The notes under the pieces are model-generated. The model had not been told where the DNA came from. It made no database searches and saw only the letters and a list, made by a program, of their open reading frames with translations. A program made the position numbers and the translations under genes. A DNA stretch of 37,908 nucleotides from a virus. The stretch spans positions 1-37,908 of IMG/VR virus record IMGVR_UViG_3300028024_000002; one strand, written 5' to 3'. This document shows positions 2,773 to 19,420 of the stretch, one piece after another (within the stretch, counting starts at the first letter, position 1; each line of letters starts with the position of its first letter).

Positions 2773-2978
2773 GCGCCGACATCATCCCCGCCCGCCCGCC
2801 CGCCGCCGTGCGGCTGCGCCTCGCCAATGAGGGTGAGCCGCTGCTGGTGACGGGCTTCTCTCTCGAAGACGGCCGGCTCGCCGTGCAGCTCCCGCTGCGG
2901 GGCATGGGCGACTGGCTCAAGGAAAACAAGTTCAGCTGGGTCACTGGCTCGAACGGCATCTGGACGAGGTCTATATGA
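2769..2978 (+). CDS. Hypothetical protein
   Basis: 69 aa. ATGA overlaps occur at both ends. Confidence 0.55.
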   Translation: MSADIIPARPPAAVRLRLANEGEPLLVTGFSLEDGRLAVQLPLRGMGDWLKENKFSWVTGSNGIWTRSI

Positions 2979-4483
2979 ACGCACAAACCCCTTACGATCG
3001 CATCATGGCCGACATCGAAGCGGCGAAGCTGTCAGTTTCGGCGGCCTGCACTAGCGCCGGCCTGGCCCGGAACACGCTCTCCCAGGCCAAGAGCCAGGGC
3101 GGCAAGCTCAGCCTGGACACCATCACCGCTTTTGCCGGCTTGCTGAAAAAGCCGGTCGGTTATTATCTCGGCGAGCCGGCCGCGGCGGCGAGCTCCGTTC
3201 CGGCAACGGCACGCTTCGACATGATCACCCCCTCGCCGCGCAATCCGCGCAAGCACATCGACGATGAAAGCTTGCGCGGCCTGGCGGAGAGCATCGCGGC
3301 CGACGGCATACACCTTCCGCTGCTGGTCCGCATGAACCCGGCCGGGCAGGAGCTTTATGAGATCATCGCCGGCGAGCGCCGTTGGCGGGCTGTGCAGCTG
3401 TTGATCAGCGAGGGCCGCGCCGGCAACGACTACGAGCTGCCAATTAAGCCCATCCACCCCTGCGACGATCGGCGCGCCCTGGAGATCGCTGTCACCGAGA
3501 ACGTTGCGCGCAAGGACATGACGCCTTGGGAAGAAGCCCAGGCGTTCGCCAGCCTGGTCGCCGCCGGCGCCAAGGTGGAGGAGATCGCCAAGACCGTTGG
3601 CCTGGTCGCTCGCACGGTGCAGAAACGCCTGCGGCTGGTCAACGATCTGGCGCCGGAAGTGCAGCAGGCCCTCGCCGCCGGCACCATCAGCGTCGAGATC
3701 GCCAATATCTTCGCCAGCGATTGCCCGAAGGAGCTGCAGGCCGAGGCTCTGGAGGACTTCGCTAATATCATTGGCAGCATGAGCGCGGTCAACTTCAAGA
3801 ACCAGCTCACCTGGTTCATCAACAACAATACTGCCGACGATGACGACAGTGACGATGGCGATGAGATCGAGAGTAAGACATCGTCGCGGTCAGCGCCGAA
3901 GCAGACCAAGAAGCAGTCAGCAGCCGAGGCCCTACGGAAGCTTCGAGCTGATAAGGCTGCAGCAACAGAAAACGCGCTGGCGCAAAAGATCGCCGGCGCC
4001 AACGATATCGCGCTACGCCTATGGATGATGTCAGTCATTGCGCACTATTCGCACGACCTGCCCACCACCCTTGAGGCCAGCGACGGCATCCCCGTACATA
4101 TCATCGAGCAATTGCCGGCCGAGTTCCGCAAGCAGTTCCAGGATGAAGCCGACGGCTACGTCTCGAACACCGCCGAGGCACTGGGTGGATTTCGGCAGCT
4201 TCGCGAAGATGCCGACCTGATCAGCATCTGGCACTGGCTCGCCGATATCGACATGGCGATCATCAAGAGTACGTTCTGTCATTGGGTCGCGAATTCAATC
4301 AGCCTGCAGCTGCATCGCCGCGGCAACTACAGCGGCTTCGATGGCGTCGACCCGCTGACCTTGGACCTTGCCGAGATTTGTCATGTCGAAATCCCGGCCG
4401 AGATCCTCCCACCCCAGGTTGACCTGGAGGAGGCGATCGCCGGCAAGCCGGAAAAGGCGGGCAAGAAGAAGGGGGCGAAGTGA
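2975..4483 (+). CDS. ParB N-terminal-domain (ParB/Srx, CTP-switch type) protein with an N-terminal HTH and an acidic linker
   Basis: 502 aa. It carries the ParB box ITPSPRNPRKH and the GERRWRA motif. The N-terminus has an XRE-like HTH. An acidic run NTADDDDSDDGDEIE is present. No ParA gene is in the genome. Confidence 0.75.
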   Translation: MNAQTPYDRIMADIEAAKLSVSAACTSAGLARNTLSQAKSQGGKLSLDTITAFAGLLKKPVGYYLGEPAAAASSVPATARFDMITPSPRNPRKHIDDESLRGLAESIAADGIHLPLLVRMNPAGQELYEIIAGERRWRAVQLLISEGRAGNDYELPIKPIHPCDDRRALEIAVTENVARKDMTPWEEAQAFASLVAAGAKVEEIAKTVGLVARTVQKRLRLVNDLAPEVQQALAAGTISVEIANIFASDCPKELQAEALEDFANIIGSMSAVNFKNQLTWFINNNTADDDDSDDGDEIESKTSSRSAPKQTKKQSAAEALRKLRADKAAATENALAQKIAGANDIALRLWMMSVIAHYSHDLPTTLEASDGIPVHIIEQLPAEFRKQFQDEADGYVSNTAEALGGFRQLREDADLISIWHWLADIDMAIIKSTFCHWVANSISLQLHRRGNYSGFDGVDPLTLDLAEICHVEIPAEILPPQVDLEEAIAGKPEKAGKKKGAK

Positions 4484-15700: not shown

Positions 15701-16286
15701 TCAAGTCGGTCCGGGACAGTTCGGCGAAGGTGGCGAAAGTCCGCGCCATCCATTGCGCGTCCTGGTTCTTGGTGACGCCCGGCTTGCCGCCTTGGCGCAA
15801 CTCGAACATCTCGCGGACGATGTCGTCGGCAAAGGTACTGTCGCCCAGCATGCGCTCGATATGCGGCCGCTCGCGCTGGATGGTTGCCAGCATGTCGCCG
15901 ACGAAGCGGCTCTCGAAGGCGAGGCGCGTCGCCGACACTGAGACGCGGCCGGAGGCAATACCCTTGGCCGTGCCTTCCAGCACCGCCAGCACCGCGCGGG
16001 GATAGCTGAGCCCGCTGGCGACATGGTCGGCGATGGTGCGCTCCAGCCTGTCCCGCACGATCGCATTGAGCGCGGCATGCTTACGCTGCAGCGCCGCCGC
16101 GATCTTGGCCTTCTGCCCCTCCTCGCGCGCCAGCTGGCGCAGCCGGCGGTCCAGCTGGTCGATCTTGCCCTCTGCGGTCAGGCGGTCGCGATAGCCCTGG
16201 ATCTTCTCGAAGACCTGTTCCAGATCCTGGTCGCTGATATTCGGCGCGACGCGCCGGACGATATCGATACATTCCTGCGCGCTCAT
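12756..16286 (-). CDS. Large internal virion/ejection protein (T7 gp16 position) with a C-terminal hydrophobic segment
   Basis: 1176 aa from the ATG at 16286, which has an ATGA overlap and GAGGG upstream. It is long and helical, with the segment IGHLIVGLTIAGYLSM near the C-terminus. Confidence 0.65.
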   Translation of the reverse strand: MSAQECIDIVRRVAPNISDQDLEQVFEKIQGYRDRLTAEGKIDQLDRRLRQLAREEGQKAKIAAALQRKHAALNAIVRDRLERTIADHVASGLSYPRAVLAVLEGTAKGIASGRVSVSATRLAFESRFVGDMLATIQRERPHIERMLGDSTFADDIVREMFELRQGGKPGVTKNQDAQWMARTFATFAELSRTDLNRMGAAIGKLDGWAGPQVHDPHKLLGATESEWVQAILPRLDMDRTFGRDQARIDTLAAEHERVTADLEAADKSVRLLSQGLEAIDDRETLLAGRAEALQRRRAIADARLQERQGEYGATLQRLSGNRARLKAAAKALRNSNPKGKSSIAPRKIQFESRQVEFTDAWHERLFEYGLKLERGEIDAAARKELWEHFKGFVEDERDAPFNKAEHVDDLATVMVEQAREGDLGTKDAMVVDPDQQADYLMRNIERQVSARPELRDALRRSQPGRLKGAASENTVGLNRLRRKANQAHDVIDRIDGALAKIEAERKQLPDQRAEVEARRDAADKRRSSLRDQQKQLDLQRGDLRKAIDDPVEFLRQAYRTIVTGRDSTITAAQKGEFTGPANLARTLERHRVLHFKSADDWLAYNRQFGHGNVVTSMIAHQQRAARLASQMQILGPNPEVMLSGLMDSLQLRIRNDKRIPDAAKQGQIRALTTDGHGRIASALAEVRGLTLAPENLTAARIGSSIRAWQSMSKLMAAVVSSMSDVVTGAANLHFHGKPLFKSYADQLVESVKGRGQGFERELAYLIGEGYDGLIGHVLSPHVAGDSVPGVMSKAMEWGFRWSGLTRWTDAQRSAGARILSAYMGSKVDTAFSKLEARFRHGLSLHGITAERWDALRQAQYRAQNGNVYVTGDRIRDLPDHVIDTLIPAADIAEAKAHFKLGQATMKQFGREVPVPAQVMADRQAKFDGWLARRRDGERYDLELSVRRYFADEMNFAVIETDDQARRMLYWGLRPGSFWGEAARFIGQFKGYPIAFTNRVLGRAISGGQGGSLPARILNNSGHIGHLIVGLTIAGYLSMTAKDILRGWWPPRDPTDPKTILAALAQGGGGGIYGDFLFGQASRFGNGPLETVAGPTLGAASNLLNLAMHARDGDARAGDALNVFLQNVPLLNMWYARPALDFLILNSLHEAASPGYLARQERMRRKEMGQRRIFDVQ

Positions 16287-19200
16287 CCCGCCCTCGCTAC
16301 ACACGCCGCGGCGGCATCGAGGCCGGCCGCGTATTCATCCGCCTGCGCCGCCGCCGCATCCGCGTCGCGAATGGCGTTCACCTCATCCGGCCGCAACCGG
16401 CTCTCGATCTGCTTCAAGGCCGCCGCTTCGTCGAAATCGCCGCTCTCGCTGTCGATGCCGAGCTCGCGCGCCAGATCTTCCAGGCCGCCGGCGGGCTGTT
16501 CGATCCGCGCGGCGGCGGCCGCGACTTCCGGATCCGCTGGCAGATCTGGCGCGGTTGCCGTGCTCAGCTGCTTTCCCTCGGCGCCGCGCGCCGTCGCCAG
16601 GATGTCCCGTGCCGACAGCGCCTCGCCGAACAGGCGTGGGCCGGCAAGGTTCATGCTGGCCTGGTCGACATAGCGGCCGAGCCCGATGCGCAGCTTCTCC
16701 TGGCCGACCGCGCGTGACAGGTTCTCGCCATACATCAGCTGCAGGAAGGCGCGCACCTCGGCCGATCGCGGGTCGAACATGTCCATCTGATCGGCGAGGT
16801 CGCGCAGCTTCGCGCCGGTATCGCGGGCGCGCCGGATCATGCCGACCGCCTGCATCAGCGCGACCGTCTGGTCCATTTCCGGGATGATGTCGCCGATCGC
16901 CGCTGCGACGCGCAGCTTGACCCAATCCGGCGCCAGGTCGGTCAGGGCCTTGCCGATCGTCCGCATATTGTCGTCGGTGCTTTCCAGCAGCCCGCCGATC
17001 AGGTGGGGATCCTCATAGGCCCGCGCCAGCAGGGCCGCCTGCAGGCGCCGCACGCCATCTTGCGAGAGCCGCCCCTGCGCATCGACCAGGGCGCCGCGTT
17101 CTGCCGCCGGCACGGTCTCCAGCCAGCTCCGGACAAAATCGCGGTTGCCGGCGGCGCCGATGTCGCCGCCGCTCCACAGGTCAAAGATCTCGTTTGGCAG
17201 GTTGCGGGCGTCGGACTGCGCCCGCTCAGCGGCACCCATGGCGAGCGTGGTACGGTCATTTGCCTCGCGCGCGAGGGCGGCGCGGTCTTCCAAGGAGAGA
17301 TCGCCGAGGCGCCGGCGGATCAGAATGGGCTCTTTCATGCCGTCGATGGCAAAGCCCTGGTCCTTCAGCCAAGCACGATAGGCCGCGGCCGTCTGCAGGC
17401 CCTCGGCATAGGCGCGGCGGATGGCGAGCGTGCGGCCATTGCCGCTTTCGACGATGTTGTCACCACCGACGATCGGGGCGCCGTCGCCGGCGGCGGCTGT
17501 GCGGCCCAGCAGCTCGGGATCCAGGCGCGCGGAAATGTCCGCGATCTGCGCTGCAGATGCGGCCCGGCCGCGGTCGCGCGGCTGCAATTCGGCGGGGAAA
17601 GCGGGATTTACGGCGAGTTCGCCGTTATGGCTGGTAACGAGCGACGCCGCATCGACCACCTCATAGCGCACCGGCACACGCCGGCCGGCCGAGGTGACGG
17701 CGACGGATTGACGGGCTAGGGTTTGGGTTTGCCCGCCGGCTTCAGATCGGCCACCACTTCGCGCAGGGCCTTCAGCTGGTAGTGATCCGTCGAGGCGTCG
17801 AGATCCAGGAACATTTGATCCGGGGCCGTCTCCGCCGTCGGGGTCGTGTCGTTGGCTACCTTTTTCGACGAGGGCCGGGCTGGACCCCCGGGGAACGTCG
17901 TTCGAGTATCGGGCATAGCTGTCTGCCTCCGATTTTAAGGCCTCATAAGTCCGGATAGGCGCATCGCCGACGGACCGCACATACTCAGGATCGACGAAGC
18001 GGCCTTCCTCGCGGAAGCGCTTGATCGCACGGTTAACGGCCTTTTCTGAGGGAATTTCGGCCAGGACGAGATGAACATCGTAACCTGCCTGCTTCAGAAG
18101 GTGGATACGCTCGCGGATATTGTCAAGCGTTTTTCCAACCAGGGGCAGCACCAGGTTGTCGCCGGAGCGCACCGCCCGGGCCAGGACACCGGCCGCGATC
18201 TGGTCGCTCTCCTGGTGGACGGCCATCGCGCCGAGCCCGCCCTGGAACTCTGGCAGCTGCGCCTTGGCCGCGTCGCTGTCGACGATCAAGGCCCTATACT
18301 GCGCCGCCAGGGGATCCGCGATGGTGCTCTTGCCGGCGGCCGGCGGGCCAAGGACGATCACCGCCTGGCGGTTCTTGGCGCCGGCGCCCTCCCCGTACAG
18401 CCGGTCCGTCAGCGACGCCCGCAGCTGGTCGCGCTCCGGCGTCGAGACGGCGATCGTCTGCTGCATGGCCCGCGACTGGCTTTGCGCGGCGATCACATCG
18501 GCCGGCCAAGGCTCACCCGGTCGCCAGACCATCTCCTCGGCATTGCTGACCTTGCCGCGCAGGCTGTCGGCTGCGGCGACCGCATCCGGGGCCAGCCCGA
18601 CCGGCCGGCCTGCCGCGAGGTCGCCTGCCGCCTGCGACAGCAGATCCGCGGCTGCTTGCCGCCCGCCCATGTCATCGACGGCGCCGTGGCCGCGCCAGGC
18701 TTCCCAGCCGCCATGCGCGCCGCCAGCGGCTGCCCCGAACAGGCCGGAAAAGGCGATATCCATCGCCGCCTGCGTAAAGGTCGTGTCGTCGCCGAACTGC
18801 CGCTTGCTGGGGATCAGGTAGGGTTCCGACGCCGCCGTACCGGCCGCGGCCTCCCCGCCCTGCACGACGGCGCGGCCCAGCACCTTGCCGGCGGTCGGCC
18901 CCAGGAAGCGCGCCATGCGGGCAACGACTGCGGCCTTGGCGACAGGGCCGGCAAGAGGGATGAAGTTGACGGGATCCGGCGCACCGCCCAGGAGCTCGGC
19001 GCCAAAACCCAGGACCGAGCGCGCACCGTAGGGGCTGCGGTCGATCAGGTAGCGGCGATAGGCATTCTCGTCGAAGGCATCAGCCTTGGCCTGCGCGCGG
19101 GCGACGGTCATCCGGTTGTCGAACGGAACGCCGTCACGGTAATAGGGCGACTTCTTCCAATCGTCCTCGCTCAGCAGCGGCACATCTGTCCGCACCATGC

Positions 19201-19420
19201 GCGGCGGGCCGCGATGCACACCCTGCGTCGGGTCGACCATGCGGTCGTCATTGGGGATAGCGACGTTCGCTTGACCCTGACCAAGGGTCGAATTCCACCA
19301 ACCTTCGCGCAGCTTAGAGCCTAGATAGTCGCCGATCGGCGTTTGAAAATTCTCGACCTCCGACAGGCGGTCGAAAACGTCGGAAGTGCTGACGGAAGGG
19401 AAAGGCTGCAGGTCGCTCAT
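16283..19420 (-). CDS. Polyvalent internal virion protein with a zeta-toxin/AAA_33-like P-loop kinase domain and a possible ParB/Srx-like module
   Basis: 1045 aa. Walker A is VIVLGPPAAGKST, followed by LIVDSDAAK and then GYDVHLVLAEIPSEKAVNRAIKRFREEGRFV. The downstream module reads ELQPRDRGRAASAAQI...VESGNGRTLAIRRAY. The frame anomaly at 17716-17916 is reported in the findings. Confidence 0.65.
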   Translation of the reverse strand: MSDLQPFPSVSTSDVFDRLSEVENFQTPIGDYLGSKLREGWWNSTLGQGQANVAIPNDDRMVDPTQGVHRGPPRMVRTDVPLLSEDDWKKSPYYRDGVPFDNRMTVARAQAKADAFDENAYRRYLIDRSPYGARSVLGFGAELLGGAPDPVNFIPLAGPVAKAAVVARMARFLGPTAGKVLGRAVVQGGEAAAGTAASEPYLIPSKRQFGDDTTFTQAAMDIAFSGLFGAAAGGAHGGWEAWRGHGAVDDMGGRQAAADLLSQAAGDLAAGRPVGLAPDAVAAADSLRGKVSNAEEMVWRPGEPWPADVIAAQSQSRAMQQTIAVSTPERDQLRASLTDRLYGEGAGAKNRQAVIVLGPPAAGKSTIADPLAAQYRALIVDSDAAKAQLPEFQGGLGAMAVHQESDQIAAGVLARAVRSGDNLVLPLVGKTLDNIRERIHLLKQAGYDVHLVLAEIPSEKAVNRAIKRFREEGRFVDPEYVRSVGDAPIRTYEALKSEADSYARYSNDVPRGSSPALVEKGSQRHDPDGGDGPGSNVPGSRRLDGSLPAEGPARSGGRSEAGGQTQTLARQSVAVTSAGRRVPVRYEVVDAASLVTSHNGELAVNPAFPAELQPRDRGRAASAAQIADISARLDPELLGRTAAAGDGAPIVGGDNIVESGNGRTLAIRRAYAEGLQTAAAYRAWLKDQGFAIDGMKEPILIRRRLGDLSLEDRAALAREANDRTTLAMGAAERAQSDARNLPNEIFDLWSGGDIGAAGNRDFVRSWLETVPAAERGALVDAQGRLSQDGVRRLQAALLARAYEDPHLIGGLLESTDDNMRTIGKALTDLAPDWVKLRVAAAIGDIIPEMDQTVALMQAVGMIRRARDTGAKLRDLADQMDMFDPRSAEVRAFLQLMYGENLSRAVGQEKLRIGLGRYVDQASMNLAGPRLFGEALSARDILATARGAEGKQLSTATAPDLPADPEVAAAAARIEQPAGGLEDLARELGIDSESGDFDEAAALKQIESRLRPDEVNAIRDADAAAAQADEYAAGLDAAAACVARAG
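17716..17916 (-). CDS. Embedded +1-frame ORF (66 codons) inside the polyvalent protein gene; status unresolved (overprinted gene, frameshift product or ancestral frame)
   Basis: The ATG at 17916 has GGAGG 9 nt upstream. By my count GC3 is about 81% in this frame against about 42% in the host frame over 17716-17860. It ends at TAG 17716. Confidence 0.4.
   Translation of the reverse strand: MPDTRTTFPGGPARPSSKKVANDTTPTAETAPDQMFLDLDASTDHYQLKALREVVADLKPAGKPKP

Follow-up and report, generated by a model that had tools for sequence, protein, structure and literature searches.

A conserved reading frame embedded over the zeta-ParB linker of a phage polyvalent protein: a probable case of dual coding

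Introduction

Phages are known to carry small genes inside larger ones. In Rz/Rz1 of lambda, and in 18.5/18.7 of T7, a small gene lies in the +1 frame of a larger phage gene, and the products of Rz and Rz1 are both made and work together. Zeta-type P-loop kinases are known from the epsilon/zeta and PezA/PezT pairs, in which the kinase stands beside a small helical partner that neutralises it. Furthermore, several phage structural genes yield isoforms by frameshifting, such as T7 10A/10B, the tail chaperones G/GT and the +1 shifts of Listeria phage PSA. Iyer, Burroughs, Anand, de Souza and Aravind reportedly described, in 2017, the polyvalent proteins of phages and conjugative elements; to our knowledge, that description concerns single-frame multidomain proteins, and embedded second-frame genes are not part of it. 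Here, we analyse a 37,908-nucleotide (nt) stretch of viral DNA (positions 1 to 37,908 of the IMG/VR record IMGVR_UViG_3300028024_000002), the whole of which we call the window. It contains a gene for a polyvalent protein of 1045 amino acids (aa) with zeta-kinase and ddrB-ParB domains, and this gene, termed the host gene in the following, harbors an open reading frame (ORF) of 66 codons in its +1 frame. With a probability of roughly 0.7, and on the strength of sequence comparisons, we conclude that positions 17716-17916 of the window are dual-coding, i.e., that an embedded gene with an ATG of its own is overprinted on the linker between the zeta and the ParB domain.

Embedded +1 genes in phage genes are already known, as in the case of Rz1 in Rz; what we describe here is a broadly conserved and rarely called family in a virion effector. 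The resemblance to Rz1 lies in an ORF of about 60 codons that is situated wholly inside a larger phage gene, in its +1 frame, and that has a candidate internal start and ribosome-binding site. The lipoprotein Rz1, in contrast, is rich in proline and possesses a signal peptide and a lipobox Cys, whereas a Cys, a hydrophobic N-terminus and a lipobox are absent from all the +1 peptides that we aligned. The host gene moreover encodes a virion-delivered kinase rather than a lysis protein, and the embedded ORF is a candidate gene, whereas both Rz products are known to be made.

A comparison with kinases and their partners is also instructive. AvrRxo1 is a kinase that is delivered into another cell and that is toxic to its producer in the absence of Arc1 (PMC4938570). 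The host protein would likewise be a kinase delivered into another cell, and it shares a zeta-family P-loop kinase domain with AvrRxo1/Arc1 as well as with epsilon/zeta and PezAT. However, the partner in those pairs is a separate neighboring gene, whereas here it would overlap the 3′ end of the kinase in another frame, and the small protein is without detectable similarity to a Pfam family or a PDB chain.

With the frameshift isoforms of phages, which are treated in a general review (PMC5009743), the locus could have in common that one gene gives two products, one short and one long, with different C-termini, and a relative with a fused arrangement does exist (locus L088). The difference is that there is no conserved slippery site or stimulator here, and that the second frame has a conserved ATG of its own. 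Overprinted viral genes, among them the overlaps of phiX174 and the overprinting in RNA viruses, have also been reviewed (PMC8227390, PMC6195259). As in those genes, both frames are under selection, one product is of low complexity and disordered, and the frame with the genome-like codon bias is probably the older one. Here, however, the disordered product is a linker within a multidomain protein of ~1000 aa, the ordered product is the small protein, and the family spans phages of several bacterial phyla. The host protein itself resembles the polyvalent proteins in being a large, virion-packaged string of effector domains, Zeta_toxin and ddrB-ParB among them. In the literature searched, we found no paper that links zeta toxins with polyvalent or internal virion proteins, and the literature on overlapping genes yielded nothing about this locus.

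Results

A composition anomaly coincides with a disordered linker

Over positions 17860-17716, the fraction of codons with G or C at the third position (GC3) is 20/48 in the host frame and 39/48, counting the stop, in the +1 frame. The minimum of the host gene for segments of 48 codons, 0.40 at codon 518, is the lowest among the 2796 segments in the three large virion genes, i.e., the host gene and its two large neighbors (whose own minima are 0.60 and 0.69), and segments of 30 codons fall below 0.5 at one place only within the host gene, the overlap stretch. A sequence-only reading of the window had drawn attention to this drop, and we reproduced from the sequence both the drop itself and the positions of the ORF, its ATG and TAG, the GGAGG motif and the A5 run (Table 1). 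The high GC3 that this reading had reported for the +1 frame is correct as a value, but it is not diagnostic alone, because +1 position 3 is host position 1, and all +1 runs of the host gene have a GC3 of 0.75-0.80. The anomaly proper is that host GC3 goes down to 0.30-0.45, as it does in the linker stretch, while host position 2 rises to ~0.7.

In an AlphaFold2 (AF2) model of the host protein, which was built with 20 homologues, the final kinase strands E501-506 (YARYSN) and E516-522 (ALVEKGS) cover the first 20 codons of the embedded ORF, and the ParB part is structured from aa 571. By these domain limits, the +1 ORF overlaps the two final strands of the kinase and, beyond them, coincides exactly with the disordered linker. 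Pfam recognizes Zeta_toxin at aa 350-496 of the host protein (E 2.8e-14), with AAA_33 matching as well, and the Walker A motif GPPAAGKS is invariant in the zeta-kinase domain.

Table 1. Features of the host gene and of the embedded ORF in the window, together with a second +1 ORF found in relatives (positions of the latter are those of the respective locus; pLDDT, predicted local distance difference test)
Feature	Position	Strand	Basis
Host gene, internal-virion (ejection-type) polyvalent protein	16283..19420	minus	1045-aa ORF; zeta-kinase and ddrB-ParB domains
Zeta-kinase fold, host aa 300-522	17855..18523	minus	AF2 pLDDT >90; Pfam
Disordered host linker, aa 525-569, G/S/R/P/D-rich, between zeta and ParB	17714..17848	minus	AF2 pLDDT 30-38, no secondary structure
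Host-frame linker peptide of the overprinted stretch: GSQRHDPDGGDGPGSNVPGSR			
ddrB-ParB domain, frame 0, downstream of the overlap	17309..17689	minus	PF18763, E 7.9e-36, aa 578-704
Embedded +1-frame ORF, 66 aa and TAG: MPDTRTTFPGGPARPSSKKVANDTTPTAETAPDQMFLDLDASTDHYQLKALREVVADLKPAGKPKP	17716..17916	minus	ORF list; homologous +1 ORFs
ATG of the embedded ORF, made by host codons TAT GCC (Tyr-Ala of YARYSN)	17914..17916	minus	sequence
GGAGG, Shine-Dalgarno-like motif, 9 nt upstream of the ATG	17926..17930	minus	sequence
A5 run, host GAA AAA GGT, +1 AAA AAG; candidate slip site only	17861..17865	minus	sequence
FLDLD, acidic-hydrophobic motif, counterpart of family [FY]-D-[YL]-[DE]	17797..17811	minus	family alignment
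Predicted amphipathic helix, embedded aa 41-58, STDHYQLKALREVVADLK	17743..17796	minus	AF2 single sequence, pLDDT ~68, low confidence
Predicted peptides of the embedded protein: N-terminal (M)PDTR.., KVANDTTPTAETAPDQMFLDLDASTDHYQLK, ALREVVADLK			
Second +1 ORF in L024	2296-2569		
Second +1 ORF in L022	2353-2602		
Second +1 ORF in L046	2395-2647		
Second +1 ORF in L047	2389-2638		

The embedded ORF recurs in phages and prophages

The proteins nearest to the host protein are P0002 (70% identity, DNA locus L001) and P0004 (47%, DNA locus L002). The DNA of both shows the same two-frame layout as the window, and the +1 peptide is recognizably conserved (window MFLDLDASTDHYQLKALRE; L001 MFRDLEASTDHYQIKAMRD; L002 TFVDLDAITDKIQLVGMR); L001 stems from an independent Logan assembly. 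Further relatives were retrieved from IMG/VR with an alignment of the zeta domain, which is not biased towards the +1 frame. This yielded 177 sequences, of which 80 were kept, and these represent 66 distinct loci. An intact +1 ORF of 52-110 aa that begins at the same host codons (GAT GGN or TAT GCN) is present in 62 of the 66, and two of the four exceptions are cut by the end of the contig. The ORF is also found in 13 of 14 loci from bacterial genomes (at least 39% identity), which belong to several phyla and include Alphaproteobacteria, Clostridia, Geobacteraceae, Dehalococcoidia and Longimicrobiales. Copies are carried by two cultured isolates, Roseococcus thiosulfatophilus RB-3 and Gordoniibacillus kamchatkensis VKM B-2647. 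The GC content of the IMG/VR loci with the +1 ORF is 0.33-0.68, and viral and bacterial loci together cover 33-74%.

Frame 0 runs on beyond the overlap into a conserved ParB or C-terminal domain in L001, L002, L086 and dozens of other loci, and in L085 the +1 ORF is kept even though the domain order is reversed, with ParB preceding zeta. The window ORF matches the ORF of L086 with a BLASTP E value of 5e-13. Between L121 and L002 there is an indel of 15 nt that preserves both frames. The embedded ORF of L002 repeats its DLDAITDK motif (as ELEAITDK), and L101, from a Clostridiales metagenome-assembled genome, repeats EIL.DETPLMTVEDEARWAARAARRKAEKQN twice in a region where the host frame has stopped. 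Taken together, the patterns in L101, L002 and L121 suggest that the embedded ORF tolerates internal duplications.

A Megablast search of the host gene against GenBank phages gave no match. With tblastn, zeta segments of the window and of marine relatives retrieved only relatives of ~30% identity (haloviruses, Bacteroides phages, cyanophage PSS2 and mycobacteriophages), and among these there was no cultured-phage annotation of the embedded ORF. Numerous stops interrupt the +1 frame in the distant zeta genes of PSS2 and DAC19, two cultured phages, which argues that the embedded ORF is specific to this zeta-kinase family. With the window ORF as query, a full phmmer scan of 1.84 billion representatives found one true relative, which is itself an embedded copy, and a profile of the small protein found 2 entries among 5.8 billion predicted proteins. 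A degenerate DNA pattern for FDYDAAEER matched six IMG/VR contigs, three of which were already among the known loci.

Both frames are under purifying selection

Both frames of the overlap are under purifying selection, and the embedded ORF outlives truncation of the host frame. In AT-rich loci, synonymous shuffling of the host codons showed that the probability of an open +1 frame, given the host protein, is 0.000-0.03, and the embedded run is the longest or second longest of ~80 +1 runs in the gene. Conversely, when the +1 protein was kept constant in the shuffles, the host frame stayed open with a median probability of 0.002 (L002, 0.003; window, 0.19). Synonymous third positions of the host frame are identical in 237 of 307 cases within the overlap core, as compared to 4227 of 7969 outside of it (Cochran-Mantel-Haenszel z 8.5), and the constraint has the expected direction in 13 of 14 independent pairs. 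The pair of window and L001, taken alone, shows no synonymous excess (10/16 vs 0.64).

Codon choice in the host frame is restricted in the same region. Columns with V, I or L in the host protein have codons of the type nTC (n, any nucleotide) in 61 of 68 cases, with third positions more conserved than first positions, such that a Ser in the +1 frame is kept while the host residue varies. Host Arg codons are CGA or AGA in 32/36 and in 34/37 cases, which preserves the +1 Asp residues of the FDYD motif. Host Gly is encoded by GGA in 42 of 47 instances, AAC is found 59 times as compared to 7 times for AAT, and GAC 41 times as compared to 4 times for GAT, with most of the genomes being AT-rich. When profiles were built with one clade left out at a time, the true +1 peptides scored 25-64 bits and peptides from host-synonymous shuffles 0-10 bits; in 12 clades, none of 300 shuffles attained the true score.

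Several loci show the +1 ORF without an intact host frame. The decayed host frame of L061 reads ..SGTNI*L*GCRRKG* (asterisks, stops), and the +1 ORF of this locus is intact. The host frame of L086 terminates at a TGA, beyond which the +1 ORF goes on for 58 codons with coding-like composition (GC at codon positions 1/2/3 of.79/.47/.71); this single-frame portion has been called as a gene by the caller of the Joint Genome Institute (JGI). The +1 ORF likewise outlives a stopped host frame in L005, L098 and L101.

A comparison between window and L001 gives a view of the overlap at closer range. Over the 60 nt that follow the Tyr codon, differences at host positions 1/2/3 number 4/2/10, which is a host-type pattern; over the remaining 144 nt, they number 25/12/13, meaning that the changes downstream of the A-run concentrate at third positions of the +1 frame and not at those of the host frame. 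In the overlap core, identity to L001 is 0.35 for the host aa sequence (0.70 gene-wide) and 0.52 for the +1 sequence. The sequence-only reading had noted that the frame with coding character changes at the A5 run, and the substitutions shift frame at about this run; they also favor the +1 coding that this reading had suspected. Its proposal of a small gene overprinted in a disordered linker is well supported by the conserved ORF, by selection in the +1 frame and by the low pLDDT of the linker.

Entry into the +1 frame and alternative explanations

In 76 loci, the ATG is located at a fixed place or two codons upstream of it, at GAT GGN. The Asp column that provides the ATG has GAT 52 times and GAC 4 times, as compared to 16 and 12 times in an Asp column further upstream (Fisher P 2e-4), and the ATG is preceded, at a distance of 0-6 codons, by a +1 stop in most loci. 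Host third-position divergence drops from 0.44-0.53 upstream of the ATG to 0.28 in the ten codons after it, and the codon-choice constraint for the +1 residues M-A-T-x-K-S-T-T-T starts at the ATG. Purine-rich runs resembling a Shine-Dalgarno (SD) sequence are situated 7-12 nt upstream of the ATG across the family; in the window, the calculated duplex with the anti-SD has -9.5 kcal/mol, with -6.0 for synonymous shuffles (P 0.16). By analogy with Rz1 inside Rz, we infer that initiation occurs independently at the internal ATG.

A number of observations weigh against this reading. An ATG at this place is expected by chance in ~65% of cases given the host residues, such that the ATG alone is uninformative, and the SD signal of the family is modest (mean -7.2 vs -5.9 kcal/mol for shuffles; median P 0.275). 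For the window alone, the +1 frame is open in 85% of host-synonymous shuffles (P 0.85); its own openness is not significant, and significance is therefore taken from the homologues. The profile score of the window is marginal (4.6 bits vs -0.3 +/- 2.9 for shuffles, of which 10/300 attain it); L002 scores 9.1, which 2/300 shuffles attain, and the clade of the window is more divergent. In this clade, the first 60 nt after the ATG display host-type constraint only, and use of the ATG is thus putative for this clade specifically; selection changes frame at about the A5 run. In L088 (JGI 3300056583 contig, 333-2102), furthermore, frame 0 contains the tail module, which is situated at the C-terminus of the kinase and joined to it by a basic linker of 38 aa, and the +1 frame of L088 is broken by stops. 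The module aligns with that of L005, a syntenic relative (FKDLASMTENAL vs FKDLATLTETAL; BLASTP 10/20 identities, E 5e-5), and is found in frame with the kinase only in L088 among more than 90 loci. This arrangement is equally compatible with a C-terminal extension to which ribosomes gain access by frameshifting and with the joining of two interacting partners. Under either reading, it argues for the tail module working together with the kinase domain. As a separate observation, the stop after the tail module overlaps the ATG of the next gene in both L088 and L005.

Programmed +1 (or -2) frameshifting would produce a 567-aa kinase with an ordered helical tail next to the 1045-aa kinase-ParB protein, and in the window it would involve a slip at GAA AAA GGT with re-pairing of tRNA-Lys on AAG or AAA. 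The L088 fusion, with its broken +1 frame, can be read in this way, and so can the change of frame in selection at about the A5 run, which window and L001 have in common, and the constant phase of the +1 ORF relative to the kinase. We nonetheless regard frameshifting as unlikely. There is no conserved shift site: A5 is found in window and L001 only, L002 has GAA GAA TCC and L086 GAA GAA GGC, and the marine clade has neither a homopolymer nor a known +1 motif at this place. With a +1 stop so close upstream, a shift would have to take place at or after the ATG, and it is right at the ATG that both the codon-choice constraint and the drop in synonymous divergence begin in the pooled family. The SD-like motif has the spacing of initiation, and the spacing in the prfB frameshift is 3 nt. 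Also, the host stops in L005, L061 and L086 lie at differing places relative to the +1 motif. Of the frameshift option in the sequence-only reading, the switch at A5 in the window clade thus stands and is joined by the L088 fusion, but it is opposed by the missing shift site and by the ORF's own ATG.

The overlap could also be a by-product without a +1 protein, be it of a linker that lacks L/I/V/M codons, of a host motif (LRLRRGG) or of an RNA element. The open +1 frame in most shuffles of the window would agree with this, as would the conservation of the host frame in the marine clade (LLEG.DLRLRRGG). Yet in AT-rich loci the +1 frame hardly ever stays open when the host protein alone is kept, shuffled sequences match the +1 profile far less than the true peptides do, V/I/L columns adhere to nTC with their third positions more conserved than the first, and a free-standing continuation of coding-like composition extends past the end of the host frame. 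We therefore consider a by-product to be very improbable. The homopolymer at the frame switch, where one A fewer would join the kinase to the +1 tail, had suggested an artefact of assembly or sequencing, or else that two ancestral genes were fused very recently by a 1-nt indel in the A-run. The probability of this is negligible, and the idea of a homopolymer change is refuted by the recurrence of the layout in independent assemblies with and without the A-run: L001 has both the A5 and the layout in a protein of 70% identity, and L002, L086 and dozens more loci have the layout without an A-run. In these and other loci, frame 0 re-enters conserved domains beyond the overlap, the host frame would rarely be open by chance given the +1 protein (see the values for L002 and the median above), and indels such as that between L121 and L002 keep both frames.

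The small protein

The members of the embedded family share a polar N-terminus rich in Ser, Thr, Pro and Lys, an acidic-hydrophobic motif and an amphipathic, often basic helix. The counterpart of the window helix in L086, DYHQLEALREAVEQLE, is located beyond the host stop, and the helix is hence coded in one frame only there. Searches with the +1 peptides or their profile against Pfam, PHROGs and PDB gave no credible match, which counts against the function proposed below; in the same profile comparisons, we found no homology to known antitoxins (epsilon, the C-terminal domain of PezA, Arc1).

Host gene setting and further dual-coding candidates

Genes for a T7-type portal and capsid are followed downstream by a block of three large genes, the middle one of which is the host gene. 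From this position in a T7-type structural block, we infer that its product is an internal-virion, ejection-type polyvalent protein and that the element is podovirus-like. The strand opposite to that of the T7-like structural genes encodes a ParB_N/HTH_ParB protein (2975-4483, plus strand) and a phage integrase (6485-7747, plus strand). The element is probably temperate or plasmid-like. Whatever the upstream domains are, the host protein and nearly all of its relatives terminate in a conserved helix that is followed, 2-8 residues before the C-terminus, by a single Cys. The C-terminus of the window protein (16283-16330) reads ..AAACVARAG, and those of relatives read GYCVK*, EGCVA*, SRCPI*, LRGCLN.. 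and KDCLL*.

A second conserved +1 ORF, of 63-115 aa, is found ~1.1 kb upstream of the one studied here in AT-rich, marine-type relatives. Besides the four loci listed in Table 1, it is present in L019, L032, L034, L037, L045, L048, L056 and L017. Its consensus is M(A/P)KRSRSSK ... LS.LS(E/D)EQL..A....LA.LDALSM(L/I)RRK, its ATG lies behind AGGAG- or AAAGG-like runs, and the probability of its being open given the host protein is 0.000-0.04. The host gene of the window has no counterpart of this ORF; host GC3 is normal over its other +1 runs, and their translations look like junk.

The host-frame linker of most relatives (e.g., L024, L019, L068) contains a conserved LLEG.(D/E)LRLRRGG, which is absent from the window. 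The LRLRRGG part is similar to the tail of ubiquitin (LRLRGG), and it is the Arg and Gly codons of the motif that the +1 frame fixes as CGA and GGA. The motif could be a processing site in polyvalent proteins. Finally, downstream of the distant zeta domain of Halovirus HCTV-5 (L091, KC292027.1, ~71700-72050), the annotated frame is Arg/Gly-rich (..RDREQRGQRRAGASAPGRERSGDSG..), and the +1 frame gives an acidic, halophile-like peptide (..NNEDNDAPERPPPDASAAEIQEWMDESFSYALAEGTEPKDE*), for which no ATG was seen. This stretch may represent analogous dual coding.

Discussion

In our reading of the locus as an embedded gene, frame 0 supplies the last two strands of the zeta kinase and then a disordered linker that connects to the ddrB-ParB domain. 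Translation of the +1 frame would run from its own ATG at 17916, behind the GGAGG, to the TAG at 17716 and would give rise to a separate protein of 66 aa. The first ~20 residues of this protein would be a polar passenger segment whose sequence is set by the codons of the kinase, and the working part would consist of the acidic-hydrophobic motif, FLDLD here and FDYD in most relatives, and of the amphipathic helix that follows. As a family, such proteins would be located at the 3′ end of this type of zeta kinase in many podovirus-like phages and prophages.

With respect to a possible function, we tentatively suggest that the small protein binds the kinase that it overlaps and serves as an antidote or chaperone, which would keep the kinase harmless or assembly-competent in the producing cell. 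This suggestion draws on the constant linkage to the zeta domain, which holds even for the reversed domain order of L085, on the fusion in L088 and on the precedents of epsilon/zeta, PezAT and AvrRxo1/Arc1; against it stands the fact that the linkage is partly forced by the physical overlap. The complete scenario, in which an antidote or chaperone for a virion-delivered zeta kinase is encoded in a second frame over the 3′ end of the kinase, is more speculative than its parts and, as a whole, rather unlikely. We know of no description so far of a toxin-antidote architecture of this overprinted kind. If it were true, recombination could never part the toxin from its antidote as the domain is shuffled among polyvalent virion proteins, and giant effector genes may routinely hide embedded genes.

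The family is almost never reported by gene callers, even though it is conserved from AT-rich marine phages to prophages with a GC content of 74%. For the virion effector of the window, the annotation would change in that 17716-17916 gives two products instead of one. More generally, the locus would illustrate that overprinting can place a disordered linker between domains on top of an ordered small protein, or vice versa, which bears on the question of how overlapping genes originate. In the biology of these phages, the small protein would be a possible partner for the kinase domains that they inject.

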